The notes below the pieces were generated by a model that ran no database searches, was not told the DNA's origin, and saw only the letters and a list, made by a program, of their open reading frames with translations. DNA of 64,000 nucleotides from the NCBI GenBank assembly GCA_937899875.1, contig CALBQP010000069.1, positions 921 to 64,920 of the forward strand, in the 5' to 3' direction. The stretch comes from an uncultured Clostridia bacterium (GTDB lineage: Bacteria > Bacillota > Clostridia > Christensenellales > Christensenellaceae). The position numbers and the translations under genes were made by a program. Of the stretch, positions 1,929-48,737 are shown one piece after another (position 1 is the stretch's first letter; each line of letters begins with the position of its first letter).

Positions 1929-2176
1929 AAAAAACACCTTCCTCGTTTCTTTTTCTTTCATATATTCTCAGAAAAACGATAGACGTTTTCCCAATATACC
2001 GTTTTGGCGGATGCCTGCGGCTGCCACCGCAAACGGCGCCATGCGCCACACCTGCCGCTTTGTCAGCCTGCCATGCGCTGCGCCCCGTTCCAGGCACAGC
2101 CGCAAAAAACCTGCCGTCCTTTTGCTACTGCGCCGCTCCTGCATTTCCACGTCGTAACGCGAAACGACACAGTACA

Positions 2177-2449: not shown

Positions 2450-2490
2450 TCTCTTTCTCCTTTAACCGTCTGATATGTGCTATTTTCGTC

Positions 2491-2781: not shown

Positions 2782-3029
2782 ATTTTCACCTTCCGAGGCT
2801 GCCTTCCATTTGCGCAAATACCGCCAGTGGAATACAGCTTAATATTTCAGCCTTTGCAACTTTTTTCCGCTCTATTATTATACTATAAACACTATGCAAA
2901 ATAAAGCGGAAAAATATATACAGGGCGGCAATGGGTTTTTTTCCTCCGCAGGGCTTGAAATTTTTTTCTTACATTGGGATTTTTTTAACAAACTTGCCAC
3001 GATTCTTATACCCGCGCACTTTTGTTATA

Positions 3030-3059
3030 TTGTCATCCCCGCGGGGCGGATGCTATAAT
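3030..3059 (+). promoter_or_regulatory. sigma-70-type promoter for the MFS gene
   Basis: TTGTCA (3030-3035), an 18-nt spacer, then TGcTATAAT (extended -10, TATAAT at 3054-3059), about 40 nt upstream of the ORF start. Confidence 0.55.
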
Positions 3060-3094
3060 TTCATTATAGTATTCACCAATTTTTTGGGGGTTGG

Positions 3095-4276: not shown

Positions 4277-4402
4277 TTTCCAGCTGGCGGACCGTATTCG
4301 TATATGTATATTCAAAAGGGCAGACGCGGTCAAGCGCTCCTGCCTTTTTTATACTATGCTGTTCATATGTTCATAACCCCAAATGAAGCGGAGGTACACA
4401 CG

Positions 4403-5308
4403 ATGCATGCATGGGAAGCCATTCAAAAAACATTGGATTACATGGAAGAGAACATCGGAAACGAAATTACCATAGAGCAACTTTCTAAAATCGCGGCGCT
4501 CTCACCATTCTACTACCAACGGTTGTTTTCGCGCCTTGTCAAAAAACCTGTGCGGGAATATATCAAGCTGCGCCGGCTGGCCCATGCCAGCGAGATGTTG
4601 CAGGATGGGCGTACTCGCATATTGGACATTGCGCTGGACTGTGGCTTTGGCAGCCATGAAACGTTTACGCGGGCGTTTAAAAACGCGTACGGTATGACGC
4701 CGGAGCAGTACCGTGCCCAGCCCGTGCTGCTCAACCAGTTTGACAAGCCGGACCTGCTGCTGGATTATACAATGATTGACGAGGGTGTTCCGTTGATCAG
4801 CGACGGGCTGGTGCTGGAGCTGAACCGAAAAACGCTGGCACAGCCCATATCATTTTTGGGGGTGACGGGTTTTGTGCCCATTGAAGGGCAAATACCGCTG
4901 GGGGAGGCGACCGGCGTGGATGTGCCCGGAGAGGTTTGGGAACGGTTCCACCGTGAAAAGCACATGATCCCCCGTATCAAGGGTGGGCGCGAGGCGGGAG
5001 TCGCGTACTTTGATGATGCGCCGGCGGGGTACTTTACGTATTTTGCCGGGGCCGAGGTTGCCCCCGGTGCGCACGACGACAGGTTCACGGCATGGCAGCT
5101 CCCTGCAAGGGAGTATATCGTCTGCGGGTTTGAGGCGGAAAATTTTGAGCAGCTTGTCACGGTTGCCATCAACAAGGCGGTCAAGTACAGCGGACGCTGG
5201 CTGGAGCAACACCACCTGACAATGGACGAATATTCGCCCGAGGTGTATTATGACAGCACACCGGAAAGCACATATATGGAACTATGGCTGCCTGCCCGAA
5301 CAATCTAA
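4403..5308 (+). CDS. AraC-family transcriptional regulator with a C-terminal GyrI-like effector-binding domain
   Basis: Translation starts MHAWEAIQKTLDYMEENIGNEITIEQLSKIAALSPFYYQRLFSRLV...CGFGSHETFTRAFKNAYGMTPEQYR. The C-terminal ~170 aa resemble a GyrI-like fold. The ATG at 4403 follows GGAGG. Confidence 0.85.
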   Translation: MHAWEAIQKTLDYMEENIGNEITIEQLSKIAALSPFYYQRLFSRLVKKPVREYIKLRRLAHASEMLQDGRTRILDIALDCGFGSHETFTRAFKNAYGMTPEQYRAQPVLLNQFDKPDLLLDYTMIDEGVPLISDGLVLELNRKTLAQPISFLGVTGFVPIEGQIPLGEATGVDVPGEVWERFHREKHMIPRIKGGREAGVAYFDDAPAGYFTYFAGAEVAPGAHDDRFTAWQLPAREYIVCGFEAENFEQLVTVAINKAVKYSGRWLEQHHLTMDEYSPEVYYDSTPESTYMELWLPARTI

Positions 5309-5322
5309 TACTATTCTCCAAT

Positions 5323-5483
5323 AAAAACGTAGACGTTTTTATTCCGCGCCTTTAGCGCGGGGTTCATTACGCTTTTTGGCGTAATGAACCGGATAAGCCG
5401 TTCAATGCTAAATCCTGCAAAACGGCATATCGTTTTGCATCCGCATTTCATGCGGGAATAGAAAAGTAGTTTTTCTACTTTTC
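5323..5483. other. tandem array of six perfect short hairpins in a convergent intergenic region
   Basis: The six stems are: AAAACG/CGTTTT (5324-5339); CCGCGC/GCGCGG (5344-5360); GGTTCATTACGC/GCGTAATGAACC, 12 bp (5361-5390); GCAAAACG/CGTTTTGC (5417-5438); CCGCAT/ATGCGG (5441-5455); GAAAAGTAG/CTACTTTTC (5461-5483). A seventh, imperfect stem followed by TTTTT lies at about 5503-5535. Confidence 0.8.
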
Positions 5484-5556
5484 TATTGGATATTAGTATA
5501 AAGAAAGGCCGCCACTTCGCTGTGACAGCCTTTTTATATGTCTGAAGCAACTTGCC

Positions 5557-7221
5557 CTAGCTTCCCGCCTCGTCCTTTTCGCGGATTTCGATGCGGCGAA
5601 TTTTGCCGCTGGTGGTTTTCGGCAGCTCGTCCACAAATTCCACCACGCGGGGATATTTATAAGGGGCTGTCGTTTGCTTCACATGTTCCTGCAGCTCCTT
5701 TTTCAGCTCGTCCGAAGGCGACGCGTTTTTGACAAGCACGATGGTCGCCTTGACCACCTGCCCGCGCACCGGGTCGGGCACGGCTGTCACTGCGCATTCC
5801 AGCACCGCGCTGTGTGTCAGCAGTGCGCTTTCCACCTCAAACGGGCCGATGCGGTATCCCGAGCACTTGATGACGTCGTCGTTGCGCCCCACAAACCAAT
5901 AATACCCGTCCGCATCACGCCATGCCGTATCGCCGGTGGAATATGTCCCGCCGGGCCAGCTGGCCTGCATGGCCTTTTCATCCCTGTAGTATTCATGGAA
6001 AAGCCCCGTCGGGTGCTTTTTATCTGTGTTTTTGATGACAATCGTCCCCACAATGCCGTCCTCGCACGGCGCGCCCGTCTCGTCCACAATGTCCAGGTCG
6101 TAAAGCGGAGAAGGCTTGCCCATCGACCCCGGCTTGACGGGGAACCATTGGTCGTAGTTTGCGAGCAGCACACTGGATTCCGACTGGCCGAATCCGTCGG
6201 AAATGGAAAGCCCAGTCGCTTCCTTAAAGCGGTTGAAAACCTCCGGGTTGAGCGGCTCGCCCGCCGTACAGGCGTGGTGCAGTGTGGAAAGGTCGTACTT
6301 TGTCAGGTCTTCCTGAATCAAAAAACGGTAGATGGTGGGGGGAGCGCAAAATGTCGTCAATTGCAGCCGCTCCATTGTTTCCAACGTCTTTTGAGGGTTG
6401 AACTTCTCTGTGTCGTACGCCACGATGACCGCGCCGCAAATCCACTGTCCGTAAATTTTGCCCCAGCCAAATTTTGCCCAGCCGGAATCCGCCATCACCA
6501 GGTGCAGGCCGCCGTCCTCGACACGGTGCCAGTAGTTGGCCGTGACAATGTGCCCCAGCGGGTATTCGTGGTCGTGCAAAATCATTTTGGGCATACCGGT
6601 GGTGCCGGAAGAGAAGTAGATCAGCATCGGGTCGCCATTGCCTGCCGCGTCGGCCGGTTTTGTCCAGTTTTCGGACGCCGATTCCAGGTCCGTCTCCAGC
6701 GAGCACCAACCGTCCGGCACGTCGCCCAGTATGCTGGTGTATTCCAGCGTTGTGCAGTCGAGCCGCGCTTCGTCCACGTGTTTGACAATCTCCGGGTCGT
6801 CCGCCGCGCAAATCATCTTTACATCCGCCGCGTTGCAGCGGTACACGATATCCTTGGCAGTCAGTTGGAACGTTGCGGGGATCACCACCGCGCCCAGCTT
6901 GTGCAGCCCCACCATCAAAAACCAGACTTCGGGCCGCTGCTTGAGCATCAGCAACACCATGTCGCCTTTGCCGATGCCCTTTGCCGCAAACATATTGGCG
7001 GCCTTGTCGCTCATGCGCTTGACGTCGCCAAACGAAAACCGCTTTTCGTTGCCGTCGTCGTCGCACCAGACCAATGCGGGCTTGTTTTGGTCGATCTGCG
7101 CCCACGCATCCACAATGTCATACCCAAAGTTAAAACCTTTGGGTATGTTCAACTTGTAATTTTTCTTGAAATCCTCATAACGGTCAAATTCTATCTGTTC
7201 GACTAATTTATCCAGCAGCAT
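5557..7221 (-). CDS. AMP-forming acyl-CoA synthetase (medium-chain / acetyl-CoA synthetase-like adenylating enzyme)
   Basis: The 554-aa product contains the AMP-binding core motif YFSSGTTGMPKM, plus YSTGD and the C-terminal PKTTSGKIRR. Confidence 0.88.
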   Translation of the reverse strand: MLLDKLVEQIEFDRYEDFKKNYKLNIPKGFNFGYDIVDAWAQIDQNKPALVWCDDDGNEKRFSFGDVKRMSDKAANMFAAKGIGKGDMVLLMLKQRPEVWFLMVGLHKLGAVVIPATFQLTAKDIVYRCNAADVKMICAADDPEIVKHVDEARLDCTTLEYTSILGDVPDGWCSLETDLESASENWTKPADAAGNGDPMLIYFSSGTTGMPKMILHDHEYPLGHIVTANYWHRVEDGGLHLVMADSGWAKFGWGKIYGQWICGAVIVAYDTEKFNPQKTLETMERLQLTTFCAPPTIYRFLIQEDLTKYDLSTLHHACTAGEPLNPEVFNRFKEATGLSISDGFGQSESSVLLANYDQWFPVKPGSMGKPSPLYDLDIVDETGAPCEDGIVGTIVIKNTDKKHPTGLFHEYYRDEKAMQASWPGGTYSTGDTAWRDADGYYWFVGRNDDVIKCSGYRIGPFEVESALLTHSAVLECAVTAVPDPVRGQVVKATIVLVKNASPSDELKKELQEHVKQTTAPYKYPRVVEFVDELPKTTSGKIRRIEIREKDEAGS

Positions 7222-7234
7222 CCATATACCCCAA

Positions 7235-7780
7235 TCATTCGTTTATTACCGTCAAAAACCTTGCGGTCTCTGTAACGGCGCGCTGGCCGTGCGGCACGGC
7301 CGGGTTAAAATATACACTGTCGCCCGCATGCAGGTCAAATTCGCGCCCGCCAATCACCACTTTGATCGTGCCTTCCAGCACATAGTTGAACTCCTGCCCC
7401 GGGTGCGAGACAAGCTCGGCCACTTCGGTGTGGAGCAGGTCGACAATCATCGGCTCCATGTCGCGGTTTTTGAAATTGGCCGCCAGCGCCGTGAACGAAT
7501 ATCCCGCGTACCGGTCTACCTTAACACCTTTGCCGCCGCGCACAATGGTGTATTCGTCCATCCGCGGCGTATCGCCTGTCATCAGCACGGTTGGGTCGAC
7601 GCCAAAGACAGCGGCCACGCCGTAAAGCACGCCGACGGGGATGTCGTCCTCGCCCTGCTCGTACTTGCCGTATTCATCCAGGCTGACGCCTACTTTGTCG
7701 GCAATTTCCTGCTGGGACATATCAAGTATATCCCGCATCTCGCGGATACGTGCCGCGATTTGTAAAATTTGCTCGTTCAT
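7235..7780 (-). CDS. XRE-family HTH regulator with a C-terminal cupin domain
   Basis: The N-terminus reads MSQQEIADKVGVSLDEYGKYEQG (HTH). The C-terminus carries the cupin motif HPGQEFNYVLEGT...GDSVYF...PHG. It sits 13 nt upstream of the acyl-CoA synthetase gene on the same strand. Confidence 0.85.
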   Translation of the reverse strand: MNEQILQIAARIREMRDILDMSQQEIADKVGVSLDEYGKYEQGEDDIPVGVLYGVAAVFGVDPTVLMTGDTPRMDEYTIVRGGKGVKVDRYAGYSFTALAANFKNRDMEPMIVDLLHTEVAELVSHPGQEFNYVLEGTIKVVIGGREFDLHAGDSVYFNPAVPHGQRAVTETARFLTVINE

Positions 7781-7881
7781 TTGCGGTTGCTCCCCATTTT
7801 TTTCATTATTCTACCATAAATCGGGCTTTTTTTATACTGGAAATATACGGAAATTCATTGGTGCGGGGCATGTATCTTAAA

Positions 7882-8122
7882 AGGGAGTTCTTAGAACCGT
7901 AGGTTCTAGCTTTGCATAGCTTCCTCTGGCAAAATCAAAGATTTTGAGTGTCACCTAAGTCGGCGCAGCCGAAATATCTACAGCGGTCTAACTTAATATC
8001 GGTTGAATCAGACGTGTGAGAAACCGCTTGCATATGCAATTTATACCAAAAGTTTGTTACCAACCTCTTGACAAATTGCTATAAATTGCGCCGCAGGCTT
8101 CTTGACCTCAAAGGAATACTCA
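7882..8122 (+). repeat. dispersed intergenic repeat family 1, copy A (a composite copy with a ~110 bp internal insertion)
   Basis: GGGAGTTCTTAGAACCGTAGGTTCTAG, CTAAGTCGGCGCAGCCGAAATATCTA and CGCCGCAGGCTTCTTGACCTCAAAGGAATACTC align module by module with copies B and D. Confidence 0.7.
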
Positions 8123-8280
8123 TCAGTTGACAAAGACCTATTTTTTATCTTCGCTTCTCATACCACAAAAAGCGTCATAACAATCAACTTATAAAAAATT
8201 TCCCAACTGCTGCTGGTTATCCGTCCACACAATGGGTATAGTATATTTATACATTTCTACATTTCAAGGTGGTGATATCA

Positions 8281-9108
8281 ATGCCGATCTCAAGCGCGTA
8301 CGCGGTGCCCCATCCGCCGTTGATTATTCCCGAAGTGGGCCGGGGTGACGAGAAGAAAATTTCCGCAACAATTCGCTCTTATTTGCAGGTGGCCGATTAT
8401 ATCGCGGGCGAACAGCCCGAGACCATTGTGATCGTATCGCCCCATGCGGAATCGTATATGGATTATTTTCATATAGAATCACAGGCGCGCGCCCGCGGCG
8501 ACATGCGGCGGTTTGGTGTGGACGGCGTCAGTGTGGAGGCGGAATACGATCAGGCGTTTATTGGGGAGTTGAGCACGCTCGCGAGCGAAAACGATTTTCC
8601 TGCGGGGGTGCAGGGCCGCAAGGGCGAAGCGCTCGACCATGCTACCATGATTCCGCTGTACTTCATCAACCGGGTGTACGACCGATACAAGCTGGTGGTG
8701 TCCGGCGTATCGGGGTTGCCGCCCGAGGATCATTACCGGCTGGGCATGCTGATATCCGAGGCAAGCCGGCGGCTGGATAAAAAAACAGTATTTATCGCGA
8801 GCGGCGATCTTTCACATCGGCTGCTGGACGAGGGCCCTTACGGATTTACAGAGGAAGGGCCTGTATTTGACAGGCAGGTGACCGAAGCGCTGGGGCGTGC
8901 GGATTTTGCCGCGTTGCTGCAAATGGATCCCGACCTGTGCGACCGCGCGGGGGAATGCGGCCTGCGGACTTTTCAGGTGATGGCGGGCGCGCTGGACGGC
9001 ATGGCGGTCAAATCCGAGCTGCTGTCGTATGAGGGGCCGTTTGGCGTGGGCTATGGCGTTGCGATGTTTTTTGTGACGGGCGACGACCCGTCCCGGAAGT
9101 TTATTTGA
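8281..9108 (+). CDS. LigB/Memo-superfamily (class III extradiol dioxygenase-like) protein; the protein-B-like partner of an AmmeMemoRadiSam system
   Basis: Translation reads MPISSAYAVPHPPLIIPE...IVSPHAES...LDHATMIPL...ASGDLSHRL...ECG. The ATG at 8281 follows AAGGTGGTGA. It is immediately followed by AMMECR1 and radical SAM genes. Confidence 0.65.
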   Translation: MPISSAYAVPHPPLIIPEVGRGDEKKISATIRSYLQVADYIAGEQPETIVIVSPHAESYMDYFHIESQARARGDMRRFGVDGVSVEAEYDQAFIGELSTLASENDFPAGVQGRKGEALDHATMIPLYFINRVYDRYKLVVSGVSGLPPEDHYRLGMLISEASRRLDKKTVFIASGDLSHRLLDEGPYGFTEEGPVFDRQVTEALGRADFAALLQMDPDLCDRAGECGLRTFQVMAGALDGMAVKSELLSYEGPFGVGYGVAMFFVTGDDPSRKFI

Positions 9109-9131
9109 ATTTTGGAAAGGGAGGAATTGTT

Positions 9132-9653
9132 ATGAGCAAACAGGATACCGACCCGTATGTCAAGCTGGCGAAGCAATCGCTGGAGACGTATCTTGAAACA
9201 GGAAAGCTGATGGACGTGCCGGACGGGTTGCCCGGCGAGATGCAAAAAAGCACGGGGGTTTTTGTTTCGCTCAAAAAAAATGGCGATTTGCGGGGGTGCA
9301 TCGGCACCATTGAGCCCACGGGGATGCCGTTATCCGAAGAAATTATCCGCTTCGCGGTCATTTCCGCCACGGAGGACCCACGATTTTCCCCGGTTACAAA
9401 GGACGAGCTTCCCGCGCTCACATACAGCGTGGATGTGTTGGGCGATCCCGAACCTGCCCCCAGCACCGACGATCTGGATGCCAAGGTCTACGGCGTGATT
9501 GTATCCCGGGGGCACAGGCGCGGCGTGCTGCTGCCCGACCTGGAATTGGTTGATACGCCGGAACAGCAGATAGAGATTGCGCTTCGCAAGGCGGGCATCC
9601 TGCCGCAGGAGCACTATACGGTCGAACGCTTCAAAGTGGAGAGACACAAATGA
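9132..9653 (+). CDS. AMMECR1-domain protein (AmmeMemoRadiSam system protein A)
   Basis: Contains GVFVSLKKNGDLRGCIGTIEP, the AMMECR1 signature. The ATG at 9132 follows AAGGGAGGAATTGTT. Confidence 0.85.
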   Translation: MSKQDTDPYVKLAKQSLETYLETGKLMDVPDGLPGEMQKSTGVFVSLKKNGDLRGCIGTIEPTGMPLSEEIIRFAVISATEDPRFSPVTKDELPALTYSVDVLGDPEPAPSTDDLDAKVYGVIVSRGHRRGVLLPDLELVDTPEQQIEIALRKAGILPQEHYTVERFKVERHK

Positions 9654-10474
9654 AAACAACATGCACCATATGCCCGCGGGCCTGCGCCATCGAGGAAGAC
9701 GATACCGGGTTTTGCCGCGCCCGTAAAAATGAAAACGGCCAAATCATCGACGCAAACTATGGCAGGCTGACCGCGCTAGCCCTCGACCCGATCGAGAAGA
9801 AGCCGCTTGCCCGCTTTATGCCCGGCAAAATGATTCTTTCGGCGGGCAGCTTTGGATGCAACCTGCGCTGTTCGTTTTGCCAAAACAGCGATATATCAAT
9901 GAACGACGGCTCTATTGCCAAAGAGACAGTGCTGCCACAGGCGTTGGCCGACAAGGCGGAAAAGCTGATTCCACAGGGGAATATCGGCGTGGCGTACACG
10001 TACAACGAGCCGGTTGTAGGATTTGAATATGTACGCGATTGCGGGGAGATCGTGCACAACCGGGGCATGGTCAACGTGCTGGTTACCAACGGATATATCA
10101 ACGAAGCGCCGCTGATAGAGCTGCTGCGCCATACCGATGCCATGAACATTGACCTGAAAGCATTTACCGAACGGTTTTACCGGATGATGGGCGGGCATCT
10201 TGACGTTGTGAAACGGTCGATTGCCCTTGCGGCGCAGTATTGCCATGTGGAGGTGACGACGCTGATTGTTCCCGGCGAAAACGACAGCCCCGCGGAAATG
10301 GATCAGGAAGCCAAATGGCTCGCGTCCATTGATCGGACAATTCCCCTGCACATCAGCAGGTTTTTTCCGCGGTACAAAATGACCAACGCGGAGGCGACAG
10401 ACCCTGACATGCTCTTTCAATTGGCGGACGTTGCGCGTTATCATCTCGATTATGTCTACACCGGCAATGTGTGA
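9650..10474 (+). CDS. AmmeMemoRadiSam-system radical SAM enzyme (PFL-activase-like)
   Basis: Contains the CX3CX2C motif GCNLRCSFCQNSDIS. The N-terminus has CTICPRAC..FC. Its start overlaps the AMMECR1 stop by 4 nt. Confidence 0.85.
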   Translation: MKTTCTICPRACAIEEDDTGFCRARKNENGQIIDANYGRLTALALDPIEKKPLARFMPGKMILSAGSFGCNLRCSFCQNSDISMNDGSIAKETVLPQALADKAEKLIPQGNIGVAYTYNEPVVGFEYVRDCGEIVHNRGMVNVLVTNGYINEAPLIELLRHTDAMNIDLKAFTERFYRMMGGHLDVVKRSIALAAQYCHVEVTTLIVPGENDSPAEMDQEAKWLASIDRTIPLHISRFFPRYKMTNAEATDPDMLFQLADVARYHLDYVYTGNV

Positions 10475-39833: not shown

Positions 39834-41023
39834 TTCGAATGATGCCTTTCTTTCGATACTCTGTCGGCGTGACGCCAAACATATTTTTAAATATTTCGCA
39901 AAAGTAGTGTTGAGAGTTATACCCGGTCTTCTCGGCGATTTCGTATATTTTCAGGTCGGTGCCGCCCAGCAGCTGCGCCGCTTGTTTCAGCCGGTATTTG
40001 GTCATGTATGTCACAAACGTATCGCCGGTTTCCTGCCGGAAAAGTTTGGTCAGGTATCCCACGCTGATACTGTTTCTTTCTGCAAAGGTGGTTAGCTGCA
40101 GCGCCGGGTCGGCATAGTTCTCGCGTACGTATTCCATAATCCGGTTTACGATGGGGAGCGTTTGCGTATCTTTTTCCATGTGCGCCTTCACCTGCAGGTG
40201 CGCCGCGTGAACGTCATACCCCTCCACCCGGCCAAAATACGCGTGGACATCGTGCATCATGCCCGCGGTCACACGTTCTGTGATCAAACGCTGTTGCCTG
40301 CTGCCGGGGGGTATACAACGCGGATATGCTGTCGTCCTTATTGATCCATGTGACAAAGGGCCGGAAATGTTCCAGCGCCGTATCCACTGCCGCGCGCAGT
40401 TTTTTTGTCTCATCTTCCCTCTGCTGTTTCTCCTCTTTGGTTTCAATATCGGTTTTCTTCAGGTCAAAAAAACGCACATAACCCATATCTGCGGGAATTT
40501 CCACATCCAGCAGGGCAAGGCTCTCCCTAATCTTTGAGTTGTCTCCCTGTTCTACCACAAGCTGGCGGAGCAACTCCGCCTCCAAAACAGGTTTGTTCTG
40601 GTCCACAAGCGAGCGGGCCTCTGCATAATCGGTGCGCTTTTGCCGGCGTTCCTCCACCTCGGCGCATGCCTTTTTCAGCAAATCCTGCAGTGCGTCTTCA
40701 TCAATTGGTTTGAGAATGTAATCGTACACACCCAGCGTCAGTGCCTGTTTGGCATAGCGAAAGTCGTCGTAGCCGGTGATGACGATAAAAACAGGATCGT
40801 CCAGGCATTCCTTTGCCTGCTCCACAAACTCGAGCCCGCTGACGATGGGCATACAAATGTCCAGCAGGCAGATGTCGGGCAGCCGCTCCCGGGCAATTGC
40901 CAGCGCTTCGCTGCCATTGGCCGCAAGCCCCACCACTTCCATGCCGAGCGCGGCCCAATCAAATGCGTCGTTTATGCCGTTCCGGATATATTTTTCGTCA
41001 TCCGCTATCAGTACTTTGATCAT
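39823..41023 (-). pseudogene. YesN-like response regulator (REC plus AraC HTH) split by a frameshift at a G6/C6 homopolymer
   Basis: Frame A (41023 downward) reads MIKVLIADDEKYIRNG...LLDICMP...KP...SISALY and then degenerates. Frame B resumes with ...GSRQQRLITERV...IMEYVRENYADPALQLTTFAERNSISVGYLTKLFRQETG...TGYNSQHYFCEIFKNMFGVTPTEYRK. The switch falls at 40306-40311. Confidence 0.8.
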
Positions 41024-42789
41024 GTTCTTCCTCCGTCAAGGTCGGTGACCGCGGCGCATCGTATGGTCACCGTTGTCCCTTCCCCGTATACGCTCTCAAT
41101 GCTGACCCCGTATATGGTTCCATAATACAGCTTGATCCGCTCGTTTACATTATAAATGCCGTACCCTTCCTCGCCCCGTTTGCCCTCCCGCAGGTTTGCG
41201 TTGATTACCTCCAGTTCGGCGGTGCGTATGCCTGCGCCCGTGTCCGTGATCCGGAACACGAGGTCAGTGCCTTCCATTGCGGCAGACACCGTAATTTTGC
41301 CGCCCTCCGGCTTCAGCTTGATGCCGTGGTAGATGGCGTTTTCCACAATTGGCTGCAAAATCAGCTTGGGTACGGAGTATGCCTGCAACCCCGGCTGTTC
41401 GCTGATCTCGTAGGAAAGCAGATCCTCGTACCGCGTGCTCTGGATGATCAGGTAATTGCGCACATGGGTGATTTCCTGGTCCACGCTGATAAAATCCTTG
41501 CCGCGGCTGATGCCGATGCGGAAGAATGTGGTCAGCGCTTTGATCATATCGACCACCTCGGTCGCGTTGTACTTCTTTGCCATCCACTGTATCGTGTCAA
41601 ACGTGTTGTACAAGAAATGCGGATTGATTTGCGCCTGCAGCGCGAGCAGCTCGGCCTGGCGTTTTTGCTGTTGCTCTTCGTACACAAGGTCCACCAGGTC
41701 GTTTATTTTCTCTGTCATGCTGTTGAAGCTGCTGCCCAGCATGCCGATCTCATCCGACGATTTGATGTCCGCCCGGACGGAAAGATCGCCCGATTCGGTT
41801 ATTTTCATCAGCTTGCTGAGCTCGCGGATCGGTTTGGTGATCATGCGCGCCATCATTACGGCAATGCATATGGCGATGGCCAATAGCAACACCATGATAA
41901 AAAGCATGGCCTGCTCGTATTCAGTGATGGCGGTCAGCATATCCTTGATGGGGAAGACGCCCACGGTCTTCCAACCGGTGTAGTCCGACTGAAAATAGAT
42001 GAACTGGTAGCTTTCGCCGTCGATGTTTTTGGTAAAAAGCCCGGCGCTGCCATCAAACCATTCCGGCCGGACGCGGGCAATGACGTCGTCGGCGGGCGTA
42101 TAGGCCATTTCGTTGGTGCTGTCCAGTATAAAGAACGAGCCTTCCTCGCCCGGCTTGATGTTTTCCGTCAGGTTTTCAAAGAAGCCCGCATCGATATCGA
42201 TTGCAATGGCGCCTGCGGGGCTTTCCGTTGTGCGGTCGGTCACGGCTTTTGCTACGCAGATGATGTCGTCCATACTCTTTTGGTCGAAATATTCCATGTT
42301 GCGGTCCGCGGGCTTGTTGATCAATACAACGCTGCCGGGCGACGCAACGCACTCCGCATACCAGCTGCTGTCCATGAACCCCGATTCCTCCACGGCATAC
42401 ATCTCGTTGCTCAGCAACCGGCCCGCGTTGTTGACGATGGCAATGCCCTGGATTTCGGGATTGGCGGACTTGACCGTCTCCAGCGTGGACCGTATGTCCA
42501 GCCGCAGGTCCGTGCTTGCCGCCACGCCGTACTGGTCCTGTATAAAGCGCTGCACCTGTGTGTTGACAGACAAAATCTCGATGAGTTTTTCAATGGAACG
42601 TATCTGGCTGTCCACGTTCTGGTTGGTTTGGTAAATGGACTACAACGCGTACCTGTTTGTCGTCTCGTGTATGGTGCGGGCGAAATAATTGTTGGCAAAG
42701 AAAATCAGCACGCAGGACACAAAAAGGATCAACACCGTGATGACCGCTATGAACTTGTACATAATGCTGATGGCTTTTTGGTTTTTCAT
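41020..42789 (-). pseudogene. YesM/LytS-like sensor histidine kinase (TM-sensor-TM-HAMP-His_kinase-HATPase) interrupted by an in-frame TAG
   Basis: From the ATG at 42789 the frame reads MKNQKAISIMYKFIAVITVLILFVSCVLIFFANNYFARTIHETTNRYAL-TAG(42640-42642)-SIYQTNQNVDSQIRSIEKL... It continues in the same frame to INPHFLYNTFDTIQWM and the HATPase TDTGAGI. Confidence 0.8.
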
Positions 42790-43013
42790 TGCTCTACCGG
42801 GTCGATATACGTCTGGATTTAAAACAAGCTATCACTTCCAATAACCGGGCATTACCCGGTTTGGCGCTGTTTGGCGCGTGCTGCAACAAACAGTTGCTTA
42901 ATTATAACACAGACGACTGGTGGGAAAACCTACAGATGTTTTATATAATTTTGCTATGTGTTTGACCTGTGTGCCTGCGGTGCTTGTCTCCTTATGCCCC
43001 GATGACCGGCGTT

Positions 43014-43862
43014 TCACAGAAAAACGATACCCAGCACCGTCATCGCGATGCCTGCGATGATCATCAGCCAACCCACGATGCGGCTGATGAGGGCGCCTGC
43101 CCGAACATTCTTTTCCACATACATGATAATGGTGAAAAGCCCCATCCAAAGCAGGTTCATCAACCCCAGCGGAAACAGTATGACCATCAGCGCCCAGCAG
43201 CACGCCACGCAGATAGCGCCGTGTTTGATGCCGATGTAAAGCGCGCCGCCGTACCCGTTGCGCCAGTTGCGGATCAAAAACATCACCGGATGGCGGCAGC
43301 CGTGAAGGCACGCCTCCTTGAGCCTGCTGATCTGGTAGAAGCCGCAGGCGACAAACAGCACGCCCGTGGCAATCATTGCGTGGGACGACTGGCCCAGCCA
43401 GTCCCCAATCAGGTTGTATATCAGCGTGGCGACAGCCCAGCACGCAATGCCAAATGCCGCCCAAAGCAGTATGTAGCCGGCCACAAATATGATCGTATAG
43501 CCGTTTGCCTCTTTATCGGTTTTTTTGAATTTGTTGTGCAGCAGCGCCTGGTACGCGTAGATCATCGGAATGGCGGTAGGCAGCATCATTGCGACGCACA
43601 TAATAATCCACATGGGCACAAACATCGCAAAATCGGGCGCGGCCATATCCGTGGCTGCCCGCGCGGCCATTGCGGCGTCCATGCCCGCGTCGGCCCCGGC
43701 CCCCATGTCCATCACCATGCCGCCGTCGCCGGACGATGTGGCAATCGTATACACCCATGCCAACGCCGTAAATGCAATCAATACCGCAAATATCACCCGC
43801 TGGTAGGGCATCCACCTGCGCCTTTTCGGTTTGCTTTCCTGTGCCACTTGATTCGCATCCAT
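43014..43862 (-). CDS. DUF2182-like predicted metal-binding integral membrane protein
   Basis: Translation reads MDANQVAQESKPKRRRWMPYQRVIFAVL..., with about 6 TM segments and the motifs KEACLHGCRHP and GAICVACCW. The ATG at 43862 follows AAGAGG, 5 nt after the ABC ATPase stop. Confidence 0.65.
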   Translation of the reverse strand: MDANQVAQESKPKRRRWMPYQRVIFAVLIAFTALAWVYTIATSSGDGGMVMDMGAGADAGMDAAMAARAATDMAAPDFAMFVPMWIIMCVAMMLPTAIPMIYAYQALLHNKFKKTDKEANGYTIIFVAGYILLWAAFGIACWAVATLIYNLIGDWLGQSSHAMIATGVLFVACGFYQISRLKEACLHGCRHPVMFLIRNWRNGYGGALYIGIKHGAICVACCWALMVILFPLGLMNLLWMGLFTIIMYVEKNVRAGALISRIVGWLMIIAGIAMTVLGIVFL

Positions 43863-43867
43863 ATCGT

Positions 43868-44557
43868 TCAAACCTCTTTCGTTACTTCGCGGGAGCCCGC
43901 CTCGCGCAGCTTTCCTTTTTCCATGATCATCAGCCTGTCGCCGTATCCTGCCGAATCCTGGTCGTGCGTCACCATGATCATTGCGGTGCCCGCTTTGTTC
44001 AGCGCGCTGAACAGCTCCATGATTTCCTTTGTGGTCTCGTGGTCCAGGTCGCCCGTCGGCTCGTCCGCCACAATCACCTTGGGGCCGCACATCAATGCCC
44101 GCGCAATCGCGACCCTGCGGCTTTCGCCACCCGAAAGCGTTGTGGGGCTGTGCCCGGCAAAGCCCTGCAGGCCAACCTGCTCCAGCAGCTTGCGGGCGCG
44201 CTTTACACTGTGCTCCGGCGTCTCGAAAAAGAATGCGGGCAGGCGGACATTGTCTATAACGGACAGGTTGTTCAGCAGGCCGCAGCCCTGCGGCACATAT
44301 CCTATATTGCGGTTGCGTATTTTGGACATTTCCTCGTCTGTCAGGCTGAAAAGATCGGTGCCCTCAAACAGGATTTTTCCGCCGTCCGGTTTCAGCAGGC
44401 CCACCGTCATGTTCATCAGCGTGCTTTTGCCACTACCCGATTTGCCCACGATCGTCACAAAATCGCCTTCGTTTACCGTCAGGCTGACGTCGTCCACCGC
44501 GTCAAATGTGCGTCCGCGCGTATATGTTTTTTTGATGTTTTGAATTTCCAGAAGCAC
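43868..44557 (-). CDS. ABC transporter ATP-binding protein (MacB/LolD-type)
   Basis: Contains Walker A GKSGSGKSTL, the signature LSGGESRRVAIARAL and Walker B VIVADEPTGDLD. Confidence 0.9.
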   Translation of the reverse strand: MLLEIQNIKKTYTRGRTFDAVDDVSLTVNEGDFVTIVGKSGSGKSTLMNMTVGLLKPDGGKILFEGTDLFSLTDEEMSKIRNRNIGYVPQGCGLLNNLSVIDNVRLPAFFFETPEHSVKRARKLLEQVGLQGFAGHSPTTLSGGESRRVAIARALMCGPKVIVADEPTGDLDHETTKEIMELFSALNKAGTAMIMVTHDQDSAGYGDRLMIMEKGKLREAGSREVTKEV

Positions 44558-44560
44558 TTG

Positions 44561-45763
44561 TCAGTTCTCCCTCATTACAGTATATGTATCCGCCTGGCCA
44601 ATTTTGCGCGCAGGCGGCAGGCAGGCCAGCGGGCCGGTCAGTACCGAGACGGCTGCGCTCAGCACGCCGTAGCCGATGATTTCTGCAGTTGTGGGCATTA
44701 GGAAAGGCATGCCCAGCATGTCGCCTATGTATGTGGTGAAAGGGAAGTAGATCAGCGACGCCAGCAATATGCCGCAGGCCGCGCCCACCAGGCTGATCAG
44801 TACAGCCTCCGTCATCACCAGGCCAATGATTTTTTTGCGGGTCGCCCCCTGTGCGCGGAACAGCGCAAATTCGCTGCGCCGCTCGTTGATGGTCACAGAG
44901 AACATGATGACCAGCACAACGATGCACAGTACAAATATCAGCGCCGCCAACATGTAGATCAGCAGCGTCATGTTGCTGAGGCGCGACGAGATGTCGATCA
45001 GCATATCGGATGACGTCACCACATCGGTGTTGAGGTGCGCGTTAATGATTGCGGTGCGAACAGGCGCGGGGTCGGTACCGTCATCCAGCTTGACCATGAC
45101 GGAAGAAACATCCGCACCCCCGACATCGCCGGGAAGAAGCCCGCTCTCGCGCGACAGCTCAATCATGTGCTGGGCGGTGTCCATTGTCATAAAGACCGAT
45201 GAATCGAACCCCATGCCGGTGGCGTCCATTTTGGCCACGACTTTGAAGGGCTGGTTGAAGAAAATGACCTCGTCGCCCGGCTCGGCCAGTATCAGGTCGC
45301 CGATCACCACTTCGCCTGCCTCCAGCGGCCGTTCCATCTTGCCGATGATCCACGGCTGGATGTTGAAATCGGTAGCGGGATCGTAACCGATCAGTTGCAC
45401 GGGCACCGTGCAGCATGCGGCGTCCAGCGATTGTATGAAAAGCTGGGGACTTGCCGTCTTCACCCCCGGCATAGCGGCAATTTCGGCCGTGATATCCTCG
45501 TCCAGGTAAAAAGCGCTGGGTTCGCTCCGTAGCAGCAGGCCCTCGGCCGATGCGTCGCTGCCGCGTGGCACCACCATCATATCCGCGCCAAAACGGCCCG
45601 ACATGCTGTTCATGCCGTGCTGGATGCTGCTGACCAGCATCATGCCGCCAAAAAGCACCGCTGCCAGCAATGTAACAAGGACGATAAGTCCCACCGTCCT
45701 GTTCGCCCTGCTTTTCAGGTTACTTAACGCCAGTGTAAACGTAGTCAGTTTTTTTTCAGTCAT
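44561..45763 (-). CDS. ABC transporter permease, FtsX/MacB type with a large extracytoplasmic domain
   Basis: The 400-aa product has TM1, then a ~230-aa loop (containing SLDAACCTVPVQLIGYD), then 3 C-terminal TM segments with the FtsX-like motif INERRSEFALFRAQGATRKKI. Confidence 0.85.
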   Translation of the reverse strand: MTEKKLTTFTLALSNLKSRANRTVGLIVLVTLLAAVLFGGMMLVSSIQHGMNSMSGRFGADMMVVPRGSDASAEGLLLRSEPSAFYLDEDITAEIAAMPGVKTASPQLFIQSLDAACCTVPVQLIGYDPATDFNIQPWIIGKMERPLEAGEVVIGDLILAEPGDEVIFFNQPFKVVAKMDATGMGFDSSVFMTMDTAQHMIELSRESGLLPGDVGGADVSSVMVKLDDGTDPAPVRTAIINAHLNTDVVTSSDMLIDISSRLSNMTLLIYMLAALIFVLCIVVLVIMFSVTINERRSEFALFRAQGATRKKIIGLVMTEAVLISLVGAACGILLASLIYFPFTTYIGDMLGMPFLMPTTAEIIGYGVLSAAVSVLTGPLACLPPARKIGQADTYTVMREN

Positions 45764-46184
45764 TTTGCTTTGTGTTTCTCCCCGCCCGCAGGGCCATGAT
45801 GGCGCCCAGCAGCATTGTGAATGCCGACAGTATTATTATAGCGGGTTTGGTACCCATTACGCAAGACATTGCCGGGTTCATGCACACGCCGATAACCGAT
45901 GTGACCAGAAGCAGCGCGCACAGGCCGCCCAGCGCCGCGAAAATACCGCTTGCCATACGCCCGCCGTCTTTTTTGACAACCAGGCTGAGCACGCCGGCGG
46001 CAAGGATCATGAGGCCCGTCAATATTTCAGCCTGCGCGGTCCAGTGGCACTTCATGGGAACTTCCTTGCCTGCGTCGGTCACCAGCGTGCCTTCGCACAC
46101 AGGCAGTATGAATTGCGGAACCAAAATGATCAACAAACCCAAAATCATGATCACGACGGATAATACGATATCCAATTTTTTCAT
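45756..46184 (-). CDS. DUF4418-like small Cys-rich membrane protein
   Basis: The 142-aa product has 4 TM segments and the motifs PVCEG, PMKCHWT and GVCMNPAMSCV. Its stop overlaps the FtsX-permease start by 8 nt. The family is recalled from memory. Confidence 0.6.
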   Translation of the reverse strand: MKKLDIVLSVVIMILGLLIILVPQFILPVCEGTLVTDAGKEVPMKCHWTAQAEILTGLMILAAGVLSLVVKKDGGRMASGIFAALGGLCALLLVTSVIGVCMNPAMSCVMGTKPAIIILSAFTMLLGAIMALRAGRNTKQND

Positions 46185-46257
46185 AAAACAGCACCCCTTA
46201 TATTTTGTTATACTATTAGACCCAATTATATATGAATCCCCAGTCGAGCAAAAGCTG

Positions 46258-46283
46258 GCCGGGAGCCGGTATACGGCTCCGGC
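46258..46283 (-). other. GC hairpin between the DUF1326-like and DUF4418-like genes
   Basis: On the minus strand GCCGGAGCCG-TATA-CCGGCTCCCGGC forms 10 bp with one bulge, followed by CAGCTTTTGC. A TATAAT-like element follows, so it may mark a partial terminator plus an internal promoter. Confidence 0.4.
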
Positions 46284-46316
46284 AAGCTAAAAAGGAGAGA
46301 ACATGCGTTCCTATCA

Positions 46317-46976
46317 TTAATCTTTCATACTTGCGGGCAGGCCGTACCGCTGGTCCGGCCGCCAGACAATCTCGCCAAAAAGGGAGCTTCGGCCGTCGTT
46401 GTCAAACACCATCTGGTGGTCGTTGTATTTACCTGTCTTTACGACGGACGGCGTTACGGAGTAAGCCTGCGGGTGGACGTTGTCCAACGTGACAATTTTG
46501 TCGGGGAACAACAAACCTTCTTTGGCAACGATGTGATTGACCAGTATACCGGGGATTTCCACCTTGCGGCCATTGGCCCGCCGCTCATATTGGATATCCG
46601 CAGGGGCAACGCCGAGGTCCAGCCCCATGCATGCGTTCAACGCCTCCATTGGCCCGCCCGCCTTGCCGGTGAATATCTGTATCATGGCTGCCCGTTGCGC
46701 GGGCGTCGCGCGGTTGTCGTAGTAGTGCGCGATGCTCCAGTTATGCCATTTCATCTCCCGGGGCGTATAACAGATAATGACGTGCGCCAGCCCGGAGATG
46801 TCCACATCCCCAAATCTGCCGGCATCCACGTAATACGCCAGTATCAGGTCGCAGTGCACATACGTGGGCATGACATCCTGTGGCGGAGATGCCGAGAGCA
46901 TACAGGGGCAGAGCAACTCGCAGTTACAGCTTTCAAAGTAGTCGCCGTCGATATACCAATCGGGATTTTCGGTCAT
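46317..46976 (-). CDS. DUF1326-like Cys-rich soluble protein
   Basis: MTENPDWYIDGDYFESCNCELLCPCMLS... fits the N-terminal W..G.Y.E.C.C...CPC pattern I recall for DUF1326. The product is 219 aa. Confidence 0.65.
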   Translation of the reverse strand: MTENPDWYIDGDYFESCNCELLCPCMLSASPPQDVMPTYVHCDLILAYYVDAGRFGDVDISGLAHVIICYTPREMKWHNWSIAHYYDNRATPAQRAAMIQIFTGKAGGPMEALNACMGLDLGVAPADIQYERRANGRKVEIPGILVNHIVAKEGLLFPDKIVTLDNVHPQAYSVTPSVVKTGKYNDHQMVFDNDGRSSLFGEIVWRPDQRYGLPASMKD

Positions 46977-47161
46977 AGCTTGGGTTGCTCCTTCTGCCTG
47001 TCAAGGCAAAGACATACCTTATACATTACATTTTGTTGGTTGAATGTCAACGAATATCATCGCTTAATATCCATTTTGTTTAAAAAATAGCTTTTTTGTG
47101 GATTTACTTCCGCCCCGCTTTCGTGCAGAATTTAGTATATGCGTAGCAGGTACGCTGCTGT

Positions 47162-47190
47162 TTGTCATTTAACCATATAAATCATACAAT
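47162..47190 (+). promoter_or_regulatory. sigma-70-type promoter of the sugar ABC importer operon
   Basis: TTGTCA (47162-47167), a 17-nt spacer, then TACAAT (47185-47190), 36 nt upstream of the ATG. Confidence 0.55.
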
Positions 47191-47225
47191 AAATTCATAT
47201 ATTTTTGGGCGGGAGTGTAAAAGAT

Positions 47226-48737
47226 ATGCCGGAAACAGTTATGAAGCTGGAAAACATCACAAAAACCTTTGGCGGCATCCACGCGTTGGATAATATTGAA
47301 CTGGAGCTTGAGAAAGGCGAGGTGCACGCGCTGCTGGGAGAGAACGGCGCGGGCAAATCCACACTGATCAAAATTATCACAGGTGTGCACCGCGCAGACC
47401 ACGGCGACATTTATATTGCCGGCAAAAAGGTGGAGATCACCGATCCCATCAACGCCCGTCACCAGGGTATATGTGCAATCTACCAGGAATTGAGCCTTGT
47501 CAACGGGCTGACCGTGGGCGAGAATATTTTCCTGGGGCGCATCCCGACAAAGACGGTGTTTGGGGTGACGGACAGAAACGCGATCATTGAGCAGAGCAAC
47601 GAGCTGCTGGCGCATTTCAAAATCGATATCGACCCGCGCGAGACGGTGGCGAACCTGGGGCTGGGGCAGCGCAGGGTGGTGGAGATTGTCAAGGCGGTGT
47701 CGGTCAATGCCAAGATACTGCTGCTGGACGAGCCCACAACCGGTATGAGCCAGGCCGAGATCGATACGCTGTTTGAGATCATGGACGAACTAAAGAAGAA
47801 TCATGTGACCATGATCTATATATCGCATCACCTGGAAGAGGTGTTCCGTGTGTGCGACCGTATATCTGTGCTGCGTGACGGCAAAAACTCAGGCCTGTTC
47901 CTGAAGGAAGAGGTCAATATTGAGAAAATCGTCGGCGCAATGATCGGTAAGGAGTACGACGACACGGTTGTGAAGGCAACGTATAAGGATTATTCGGACA
48001 AGCCCATTGCGCTGGAGGCAAGGGATTTTCAGGCGGAAACAATGAAGCAGCCGGTCTCCTTCCAGGTGCATAAGGGAGAGATCCTCGGCATCACGGGCAT
48101 TGTGGGCGCGGGCAAAAGCGAACTGTCCAACGCGCTGTTTGGTGCAGAAAAGCACATAGGCGGCGAGCTTTTTATAAACGAAGAGAAGGTGGATATGCAA
48201 TCGCCCATTGACGCGAAGAAGCACGGGCTTGCCTATATTCCCGAAGACAGGAAGGGCAAGGGCCTGTTTTTGATACACAACATTGAAGATAACCTGACGG
48301 TCGCCAATGTGGAGCTGGTCTCCGGAAAGGGCGGCGTGCTGAAACTCCAGAAGAAGGCGCAATTGGCTACGGAGATTGCCGAAACATTGAAAGTCAAACC
48401 GCTGGACCTGAAAATGGAGGCGCGGCAGCTTTCGGGGGGCAACCAGCAAAAGGTGGTGCTGGGCAAATGGCTGGTGGGAAGCCCTGACATACTGATTATG
48501 GACGAGCCCACATGGGGGATTGACGTGGGTGCAAAGGCGGAGATTTACGATTTTATCGCCAAGCTGGCTGCGGATGGCGTTTCGGTCATTGTGCTGTCGT
48601 CCGAATTCAAGGAAATACTGACGCTCTCTAACCGCATTATGGTGCTGCGCAATGGGAAAATCACCCATGAGCTGAAACCGGAGGATACGAGCAGCGAAGA
48701 ACTTTTGACACTATCGTTGGGAGGTAACACACAGTGA
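47226..48737 (+). CDS. sugar ABC transporter ATP-binding protein (duplicated ATPase, RbsA/MglA type)
   Basis: Contains GENGAGKSTL, LGLGQRRVVEI and LLLDEPT. The second half carries GIVGAGKSEL, LSGGNQQKVVL and LIMDEPT. Confidence 0.9.
   Translation: MPETVMKLENITKTFGGIHALDNIELELEKGEVHALLGENGAGKSTLIKIITGVHRADHGDIYIAGKKVEITDPINARHQGICAIYQELSLVNGLTVGENIFLGRIPTKTVFGVTDRNAIIEQSNELLAHFKIDIDPRETVANLGLGQRRVVEIVKAVSVNAKILLLDEPTTGMSQAEIDTLFEIMDELKKNHVTMIYISHHLEEVFRVCDRISVLRDGKNSGLFLKEEVNIEKIVGAMIGKEYDDTVVKATYKDYSDKPIALEARDFQAETMKQPVSFQVHKGEILGITGIVGAGKSELSNALFGAEKHIGGELFINEEKVDMQSPIDAKKHGLAYIPEDRKGKGLFLIHNIEDNLTVANVELVSGKGGVLKLQKKAQLATEIAETLKVKPLDLKMEARQLSGGNQQKVVLGKWLVGSPDILIMDEPTWGIDVGAKAEIYDFIAKLAADGVSVIVLSSEFKEILTLSNRIMVLRNGKITHELKPEDTSSEELLTLSLGGNTQ

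Follow-up and report, generated by a model that had tools for sequence, protein, structure and literature searches.

Five minus-strand genes at positions 43,014 to 46,976 of a 64,000-nucleotide stretch of contig CALBQP010000069.1, from an uncultured Clostridia bacterium, encode proteins of the DUF1326, DUF4418 and DUF2182 families together with the permease and ATPase of a type VII (MacB/FtsX-type) ATP-binding cassette (ABC) system. The whole 64,000-nucleotide stretch is called the window below. The cluster joins two modules, the DUF1326-DUF2182 pair and the DUF4418-FtsX-ABC trio, and both are kept in one cluster in every examined lineage of one Clostridia clade. As a result of sequence comparison, this co-conservation is good evidence for functional coupling of the two modules. 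We tentatively propose that the five genes form one membrane-associated soft-metal relay, most probably for Cu(I), that works by Cys/Met ligand exchange. We give this reading somewhat less than an even chance, and it is the best explanation that we have. The five genes, in the direction of the minus strand, are:

46317..46976, minus strand: DUF1326 gene, 219 residues, PF07040
45756..46184, minus strand: DUF4418 gene, 142 residues, PF14387
44561..45763, minus strand: type VII (MacB/FtsX-type) ABC permease gene, 400 residues, MacB_PCD and FtsX domains
43868..44557, minus strand: ABC ATPase gene, 229 residues, GTG start, PF00005
43014..43862, minus strand: DUF2182/PpoB2-family gene, 282 residues, PF09948

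The permease start overlaps the DUF4418 stop by 8 nucleotides (nt) at 45756-45763. The gap between the permease and ATPase genes is 3 nt, and that between the ATPase and DUF2182 genes is 5 nt. The DUF2182-like protein starts at the ATG at 43862, which follows AAGAGG; the mechanical open reading frame (ORF) reaches 44090. A spacer of 132 nt (46185-46316) lies between the DUF1326 and DUF4418 genes. The five minus-strand ORFs, their junctions, a hairpin in the 132-nt spacer and a set of Cys motifs had been read from the letters of the window in an earlier note (the original prediction), and all of these are confirmed in the sequence. The family assignments made there also stand. Pfam gives DUF1326, DUF4418, MacB_PCD plus FtsX, ABC_tran and PF09948, all above their gathering scores.

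The DUF2182 protein of the window belongs to a subclade of 24 protein clusters, which match it with E ≤ 1e-67 and 43-100% identity; the matches then drop to 1e-42, where the mainstream family begins. Genomic contexts were looked up for six subclade members besides the window, and one more instance came from an independent genome scan. The eight lineages are the window, L055, L057/58, L015, L059-61, L143/144, L145 and L062. All five genes are present in each of them (8/8). The relatives are listed here with the identity of their DUF2182 protein to that of the window:

L055/L056: 84% identity (77% by tblastn on the L055 DNA), flanks like those of the window
L057/L058: 65% identity, Christensenella sp. 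metagenome-assembled genome (MAG) GCA_036637515.1
L015: 48% identity, uncultured Christensenella sp.
L059-L061: 50% identity, on 24 contigs
L143/L144: 44% identity, five genes present
L145: 45% identity, five genes present
L062: 43% identity, permuted order DUF1326-DUF2182-DUF4418-FtsX-ABC

The surroundings of the cluster vary among these lineages. At least five different flanking contexts occur across the subclade, with a sugar ABC system and a kinase/regulator pair, a microcompartment, rhamnose-type catabolic genes, a Na/H antiporter or RNase PH nearby. Because the flanking genes differ between lineages, the five-gene unit is kept independently of its surroundings. The kinase/regulator pair adjoins the cluster only in the window and L055. 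In L062, the canonical DUF1326-DUF2182 pair adjoins the canonical DUF4418-FtsX-ABC trio, and this permuted order indicates that the modules themselves are linked and that their proximity is no chance legacy of a single ancestral gene order. In L059, L143 and L145 the end of the ABC gene touches or overlaps the start of the DUF2182 gene, and the 8-nt overlap of the DUF4418 stop with the FtsX start in the window is also present in L057 and L062. The conserved Cys and Met positions of DUF4418, the permease, DUF2182 and DUF1326 are all kept in the five-gene clade. With the five genes kept together, even in a permuted order, a chance juxtaposition is rejected. The claim of the original prediction that two modules are joined here is thus borne out, as one cluster in the whole clade and once in permuted order. 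A short contig of 1.6 kb, L006, carries a DUF1326 gene (77% identical) followed by a DUF4418 gene. At L055 (3902-6302), stretches in the DUF1326 and FtsX genes leave the reading frame and then return, and other genes there are fragmented too. We rejected a decayed copy at this locus, since the frameshifts are compensated and assembly indels are more likely. At L145 (7856-9893), the PpoB2 gene is followed by two extra genes, one of 231 residues with a weak FtsX match and one of 434 residues with no Pfam match.

Outside the clade, each module has its own company. A metagenome scan with the DUF2182 profile gave 80 mainstream loci, 36 of them with sufficient flank. The original prediction had described DUF1326 and DUF2182 as a usually adjacent pair, and they are together in 34 of these 36 evaluable loci and directly adjoining in 33, with DUF1326 directly upstream in 28 and directly downstream in 5. 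DUF4418 or a related permease is present in none of the 80 mainstream loci. No recurrent third partner of the pair emerges from these 80 metagenome loci, and the apparent clusters are shadow ORFs. The DUF4418 profile was run against one genome per species and gave 48 loci, which were annotated with hidden Markov models. FtsX follows DUF4418 in 44 of the 48 and an ABC gene is also seen in 38, in agreement with the earlier statement that DUF4418 rides with FtsX-type ABC genes. DUF1326 and DUF2182 stand beside DUF4418 only at L015 among the 48 genome loci. These distributions indicate that the fusion of the two modules is a clade-specific innovation.

The DUF2182 protein matches PF09948 with E 8e-58 and 195.9 bits, against a gathering cut-off of 28.7. 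This family, once DUF2182, now carries the Pfam name 'PpoB2, copper chaperone'. The motifs KEACLHGCRHP and ICVACCW are confirmed in the sequence, and the protein has the hallmark motifs HGxxCxxCC and MWxxMxxAMMLP. The 37 sequences compared all have M88, M92, M93, P95, H214, G215, C218, C221 and C222, and nearly all have C189. The AlphaFold2 model (predicted local distance difference test (pLDDT) 84) has about seven predicted transmembrane (TM) helices. In the predicted layout, the basic N-terminus is inside and the invariant Met residues are in TM2. Loop 1 (residues 42-79, 38 residues) is predicted outside and contains six Met, six Asp/Glu, one Arg and no Cys. Its motif is GMVMDM...GMDAAM...DM, with the clade-specific form 'GMxMDM...M...M', and in 107 homologues it has a median of 14.3% Met versus 7.5% in the whole protein. 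The CxxxC motif is on a K/R-rich loop that is predicted cytoplasmic, and HGxxCxxCC is in the predicted cytoplasmic half of TM5. A PDB search finds no sequence match and Foldseek no fold match (best E 0.4). The predicted arrangement, with Met ligands outside and Cys/His ligands in the membrane and on the cytoplasmic face, resembles that of soft-metal pathways. Cu(I) pathways usually have Met outside and Cys inside, as in Ctr1, CusF/CusA and the CPC motif of CopA, and vicinal CC pairs serve the hand-off of Hg(II) in MerT, MerF and MerA. As DUF2182 is without outer Cys, the layout argues against a DsbD-like disulfide relay.

The DUF4418 protein matches PF14387 with E 5e-27 and 95 bits (gathering cut-off 27), and the family has 1232 representative clusters at E ≤ 0.001. 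Hydropathy and the positive-inside rule give four TM segments, with the N-terminus, loop 2 and the C-terminus predicted inside. The motifs PVCEG, MKCHWT and GVCMNPAMSCV are confirmed in the sequence. In 142 representatives at 50% identity, C46 is kept in all 142, C101 and C108 in 141 each and C30 in 140, while M44 is kept in 134 and M106 in 108. These Cys and the two conserved Met are in or at the edge of two predicted outer loops, with C108 at the boundary of the loop and TM4. Our literature search on DUF4418 returned only an expression-table entry.

The permease matches PF12704 (MacB_PCD, E 9e-14) and PF02687 (FtsX, E 9e-16), both above gathering scores, and in the PDB it has a sequence match to MacB (entry 5lil) at 8e-10. 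Hydropathy places its TM segments at 26-44, 268-286, 320-338 and 362-380. Between TM1 and TM2 is an acidic outer core domain of 223 residues. The motif SLDAACCTVP forms a vicinal CC dyad, C115-C116, in this predicted outer domain. Of 41 DUF4418-linked permeases, 40 have the dyad ('...SL.A.CC...'); their loci carry the labels Chloroflexota, Planctomycetota, Desulfobacterota, Proteobacteria, Bacillota and Actinomycetota. The ATPase matches PF00005 (E 5e-36, above the gathering score). Its motifs, read from the translation, are intact: Walker A GKSGSGKST, signature LSGGE, Walker B VADEPT and H-loop THD. The best NCBIfam matches of the ATPase are LolD, FtsE and MacB-NBD, all under their equivalog cut-offs. 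For the three DUF proteins NCBIfam offers no model, and the ABC parts fall below every equivalog cut-off. Its domain content nevertheless marks the ABC portion as a genuine type VII system. A role in anti-phage defence was considered and rejected, as PADLOC returned just generic ATPase and LolE-TM similarities.

The DUF1326 protein matches PF07040 with E 2e-35 and 122.9 bits (gathering cut-off 25) and covers profile positions 1-176 of 177. It has the motif ESCNCELLCPC, that is an N-terminal CxCxxxCPC, plus C42. Across 81 homologues, C17, C19, C23 and C42 never vary, and conservation of P24 and C25 is 90% or more; the five-gene clade retains all Cys positions. Hydropathy shows no TM segment and no signal peptide. 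The AlphaFold2 model (pLDDT 91) is beta-rich, with lower confidence around the Cys cluster. The PDB holds no sequence match. Foldseek gives a distant match to an acetoacetate-decarboxylase-like fold (E 6e-5, TM-score 0.38), which was set aside as it offers no functional pointer. Conservation of the Cys motifs among homologues, expected in the original prediction, is found in DUF4418, the permease, DUF2182 and DUF1326 alike, where they are family hallmarks. Elsewhere, at L005 (9279-10540), two DUF1326 genes stand in tandem, the second 57% identical to that of the window, with neither DUF2182 nor DUF4418 nearby. They adjoin phage-like genes (ERF, HNH, DNA methylase, helicase and an integrase fragment).

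In other phyla, the DUF4418 trio often has copper proteins as neighbours. Neighbour ORFs of the DUF4418 loci were clustered and Pfam was run on the cluster representatives, with these groups as the result:

14 genome loci, Anaerolineae/Chloroflexota and Planctomycetota: Cupredoxin_1 plus Fer4_5 protein just upstream
11 loci, Chloroflexia: Cupredoxin_1 protein upstream, multicopper oxidase downstream in 9, c-type cytochrome in 7
8 loci, Desulfovibrio, Desulfovibrionaceae, Deltaproteobacteria and Gilliamella: FTR1, P19, FtrD-like and FtsX/ABC genes, then DUF4418-FtsX-ABC
1 locus (L019), Sphingomonadaceae MAG: multicopper-oxidase-domain protein upstream

In the group of 14, a pyrroloquinoline quinone (PQQ)-type beta-propeller is often just downstream, plus a further cupredoxin. 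One example is L002 (6002-12097), where the trio has the Cupredoxin_1 plus Fer4_5 membrane protein upstream and the PQQ-type beta-propeller downstream, then a small cupredoxin. The same Cupredoxin_1 plus Fer4_5 layout is found in L009-L011, L013, L014, L016, L017, L020, L031, L038 and L052. As an aside, the set of cupredoxin, Fer4_5 and beta-propeller genes around the trio recalls parts of the nos cluster. Cupredoxin-domain neighbours occur in 25 of the 48 DUF4418 loci, 9 of these also with a multicopper oxidase. A cupredoxin-type, multicopper-oxidase or P19 gene is nearby in 34 of the 48. P19 binds copper. The P19/FTR1 loci are L012, L021, L022, L037, L041, L043, L046 and L050 (about 1500-10400); they have two FtsX/ABC pairs, and DUF4418 precedes the second. 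The nearest relatives of the window permease outside the clade are linked to P19 clusters (E 1e-76 to 2e-93), the others being at about 1e-42 to 1e-70. The thiophilic-metal role suggested in the original prediction is consistent with these copper-protein neighbours and with the copper-chaperone name of PF09948.

In the proposed Cu(I) relay, the outer face would hold a type VII motor, in which the CC dyad of the permease is joined by the four Cys and two Met of its obligatory partner DUF4418. Cytoplasmic ATP hydrolysis would move the outer domain by mechanotransmission and alter the affinity or accessibility of the site so as to capture, strip or hand over the metal. The membrane path would run from the Met-rich outer loop of DUF2182 to the Met residues of TM2, then to HGxxCxxCC in TM5 and to the cytoplasmic CxxxC. 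The cytosolic DUF1326, with its CxCxxxCPC, would receive or donate the metal. We infer the complex, the metal, its path and its direction from the families, the motifs, their predicted sidedness and the co-conservation observed. We lean to inward acquisition or delivery rather than efflux. The only homologue reported to act in copper handling, PpoB2, provides an enzyme with copper; the nearest relatives of the permease belong to uptake clusters (P19/FTR1), which need an FtsX-type ABC; and no metal-sensing regulator is found with the cluster in any context.

Several observations weigh against copper, or against a metal at all. No CsoR, CopY, MerR or ArsR-type regulator and no cuproenzyme gene adjoins the cluster in the contexts listed. 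The evidence for a metal role is indirect, whichever metal is considered. The hosts appear to be Christensenella-like gut anaerobes, and such anaerobes need little copper. We know of no type VII ABC system that handles metal ions. The four outer Cys could be merely two structural disulfides, and the topology comes from hydropathy and AlphaFold2 helices only. A molybdopterin oxidoreductase cluster is beside the trio in seven loci (L020, L029, L031, L033, L038, L042 and L049), and trios also adjoin a reductive dehalogenase, c-type cytochromes, beta-propellers and, at L023 (6025-7287), a MauG-like di-haem cytochrome c peroxidase. The common theme of the trios could be extracytoplasmic redox enzymes generally, not copper. 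Finally, purified DmdF, a DUF1326 protein, is reported to be a peroxidase, and the paper on it makes no mention of copper (PMC12992908).

The same parts could work in the opposite direction, in soft-metal detoxification, a serious rival even though we consider it unlikely. DUF1326 would collect cytosolic Cu(I), Ag(I), Cd(II) or Hg(II), DUF2182 would let the metal out, and DUF4418-FtsX-ABC would strip it from the outer face and expel it, as HrtBA and MacB clear outer-leaflet substrates. This direction shares all motif and sidedness evidence with the inward one, fits the MacB match and the outward or outer-face action of type VII ABC systems, and is easier to justify in an anaerobe than copper demand. 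However, resistance operons usually carry a metal sensor and none adjoins the cluster in any context; DUF2182 shows no obvious energy source with which to export a metal that the cytosol buffers tightly, the link of the trio with P19/FTR1 suggests uptake, and PpoB2 supplies copper to an enzyme and does not remove it (PMC2855505). Somewhat less likely again is protection from oxidative or thiol stress, with DUF1326 as a peroxidase and with DUF2182 and the outer Cys proteins as a redox-protective or redox-sensing unit that would keep extracytoplasmic thiols reduced or clear peroxide-damaged molecules. DmdF consumed H2O2 and the dmdF mutant has raised reactive oxygen species (ROS) (PMC12992908), thioredoxins or flavin mononucleotide (FMN)-binding proteins occur in some P19 clusters, and one DUF4418 locus has the MauG-like di-haem peroxidase as neighbour. 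Yet a metal-loaded Cys protein could show adventitious peroxidase activity, and the cluster itself contains no thioredoxin or peroxiredoxin gene. The predicted outer loops of DUF2182 have no Cys for a DsbD/CcdA-style disulfide relay, and the invariant Met of the outer loop and TM segments and HGxxCxxCC look like metal ligands.

The company of the trio outside the clade (cupredoxins, multicopper oxidases, beta-propellers, Mo-oxidoreductases and a reductive dehalogenase) would suit a maturation or maintenance factor, similar to NosDFY-NosL and made of the trio alone or together with PpoB2, that would load or repair metal centres of secreted or membrane redox metalloenzymes encoded elsewhere. PpoB2 itself is a maturation factor for tyrosinase (PMC2855505). 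Against it, no client enzyme gene adjoins the cluster in the eight Clostridia contexts, and we judge it improbable as a separate explanation; it overlaps the best one and differs just in the destination of the metal. Very improbable is a system of the general MacB kind that extracts some hydrophobic molecule or peptide (antimicrobial peptide, lipid or haem), for which the Cys would be structural disulfides and DUF1326 and DUF2182 unrelated neighbours. The ATPase does score well against bacteriocin-export and LolD models, although under cut-offs, and many Gram-positive FtsX systems give peptide resistance. Against this stand the strict conservation of all five genes together, their permuted order in one lineage and the overlap between ABC and DUF2182 genes. 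Moreover, a precursor peptide, a BceRS-type sensor and an HlyD adaptor are not conserved, and the adjoining kinase/regulator pair is limited to the window and L055.

The Cu(I) relay can be extended to a broader idea, which we regard as doubtful. DUF4418, the CC-bearing permease and the ATPase may be an unrecognised type VII class for ATP-driven soft-metal ligand exchange at the outer face, docked in this clade on a PpoB2 conduit and a DUF1326 metallochaperone and serving copper and P19 systems elsewhere. If true, the outside-to-cytosol (or reverse) metal relay would be complete in the Clostridia clade. In other phyla this motor would work for cupredoxins, multicopper oxidases and P19/FTR1 systems, and the idea would explain what the ABC genes of P19 iron-uptake clusters act on.

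Two non-coding elements accompany the cluster:

about 46258..46283, minus strand: GC hairpin GGAGCCG-TATAC-CGGCUCC in the DUF1326-DUF4418 spacer, read from sequence
47011..47090, minus strand: conserved promoter-like upstream block, 5' of the DUF1326 gene, kept in the three closest relatives

The entire 132-nt spacer folds with -42.2 kcal/mol (z = -2.0), about two standard deviations better than shuffles. The hairpin is followed by CAGCUUUUG, with no real U-tract. Consensus terminator and promoter scans called neither the hairpin nor an internal promoter. A canonical intrinsic terminator was rejected for want of a proper U-tract and with the terminator scan silent, and an internal promoter was rejected as well, since the TATAAT at 46225-46230 is weak, with a poor -35 box and no scan call. 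The hairpin is possibly a partial terminator or stabiliser. Rfam gave no riboswitch or leader RNA match over 42600-47300, even at E = 1. The corresponding spacers measure 7-67 nt in the orthologues L059, L143, L057 and L145 and 444 nt in contig L006, so the 132-nt hairpin spacer of the window is a local feature. The five genes may share one transcript, as the original prediction proposed, or be arranged as 1+4.

The upstream block contains TTTTTTAAACAAA, TTGACA (47045-47050) and GTAATGTATA (about 47021-47029). It is common to the window, L006 (about 240-330) and L055 (about 3740-3830), and it is probably the promoter plus a site for a regulator, with an ambiguous -10 spacing. The region 47011-47090 is not among the calls of the consensus promoter scan, and no regulator was identified for it. 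No operator common to all orthologous clusters is obvious upstream; only the three closest relatives share the block. At L015 (about 7100-7150), 5' of the DUF1326 gene in the Christensenella MAG, the palindrome ACACGTGT occurs twice, about 20 nt apart. This pair may be an operator; the other orthologous clusters are without such palindromes upstream.

In the window, the five-gene cluster is flanked by a sugar ABC system and by the kinase/regulator pair. Directly downstream, a YesM-like histidine kinase gene (within 41020-42789, minus strand) has an in-frame TAG at 42640-42642, which falls between the N-terminal TM segment (...TNRYAL*) and a 531-residue ORF starting at 42615. The gene could be a pseudogene, or the TAG could be a sequencing error or be read through. 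On the other side of the cluster, past the sugar ABC genes and about 6 kb from the DUF1326 gene (L001 1-2753), a protein of at least 1153 residues has Ser/Thr kinase and WD40 beta-propeller domains.

Each protein of the cluster is itself in a known Pfam family; what is new is their obligatory combination. Sequence features further suggest that DUF4418 with the CC-bearing permease constitutes a distinct type VII ABC subfamily, and that this subfamily associates with copper proteins. Type VII ABC systems move lipoproteins, drugs, haem and hydrolase-activating signals. A clade in which both modules are always in one cluster provides a testable hypothesis for all these families together, and the conserved, sided Cys and Met motifs are precise targets for mutagenesis. 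The clade also suggests what the unexplained ABC genes in P19/FTR1 uptake clusters may do. Even if the copper reading is wrong, the co-conservation shows that the families work together. DUF1326 and DUF2182 are widespread families.

Our literature search returned no work on this set of five genes, nor any that links type VII ABC systems with copper. According to the original prediction, none of the families has a function defined by experiment; PpoB2 (PMC2855505) and DmdE/DmdF (PMC12992908) make that statement outdated. PpoB2 of Marinomonas mediterranea (COG5486) was reported in 2007 to take part in passing copper on to the tyrosinase PpoB1 (PMC2855505). It is like the DUF2182 protein of the window in Pfam family, multi-pass membrane topology and metal motifs of the Met/His/Cys type. 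Whereas PpoB2 has a tyrosinase operon partner, the window protein is from a separate subclade that is always linked to DUF4418-FtsX-ABC and DUF1326. No tyrosinase domain is found among the five cluster genes and the neighbours listed for the window, L055, L057, L059 and L062 contexts.

In Roseobacters, DUF2182 is DmdE and DUF1326 is DmdF, and both mutants fail to grow on dimethylsulfoniopropionate (DMSP) (2026, PMC12992908). DmdE is no DMSP importer, and the dmdE and dmdF genes are always adjacent (PMC12992908). Purified DmdF consumed H2O2, a peroxidase activity, and ROS were raised in the dmdF mutant; deletion of dmdA partly rescues the DmdEF phenotype, and DmdE/DmdF are estimated in ~2% of marine prokaryotes (PMC12992908). 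The same two families share one cluster in the window set. The DmdEF genes are adjacent and marine alphaproteobacterial, whereas the window pair is split by the three ABC-system genes and comes from a Clostridia-type anaerobe. The window cluster and its flanks have no dmdA, acuI, dmdR or dinB. The DmdEF phenotype might also fit a failed copper supply to a Cu-dependent methanethiol oxidase, a link that is inference only.

With the type VII ABC systems MacB, LolCDE, FtsEX, HrtBA and YbbAP, the window system shares the 4-TM FtsX fold, the MacB-type outer domain and a separate LolD/FtsE-like ATPase. It differs from characterised members in having no MacA/HlyD adaptor, hydrolase partner or lipoprotein carrier. 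Pfam finds no HlyD-type domain in the five proteins, and no such gene is listed in the examined contexts. As there is no adaptor, the cluster is not a MacAB-type efflux pump. SweC/SweD with FtsEX are a precedent for small membrane co-factors. To our knowledge, an outer-domain CC dyad and an obligatory 4-Cys, 4-TM partner are not features of characterised type VII systems.

In the P19 cluster of C. jejuni (1649-1656), expression of the FtsX-type ABC genes goes together with that of the uptake genes, and the study states that what they transport is not known (PMC6083913). The P19/FTR1 clusters likewise have type VII ABC genes beside an ATPase-less permease and outer-face metal-binding proteins. 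In these clusters (cFtr, FtrABCD-like) the uptake components occupy the positions that DUF2182 and DUF1326 take in the window. P19 (PF10634), FTR1 (PF03239), FtrD and thioredoxin genes are absent from the five genes and the listed flanks. By gene content, the cluster is neither a MacAB-type pump, a PpoB tyrosinase operon, a DmdEF operon nor a P19/FTR1 cluster.

Two further systems are similar by analogy only. In NosDFY-NosL, an ABC motor passes Cu(I) to an extracytoplasmic acceptor (N2O reductase) rather than pumping a solute. NosFY is of another ABC class, works with the NosD beta-helix and has no sequence relationship to the window genes. The Mer relay (MerP, MerT/MerF, MerA) hands off a thiophilic metal in an energy-independent way, via vicinal CC pairs in TM segments, to a cytosolic Cys-rich acceptor. 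The window has no mer genes and no sequence relationship to them, and it has an ABC motor. The Mer arrangement nevertheless resembles what the CxxCC of DUF2182 and the CxCxxxCPC of DUF1326 may form together.

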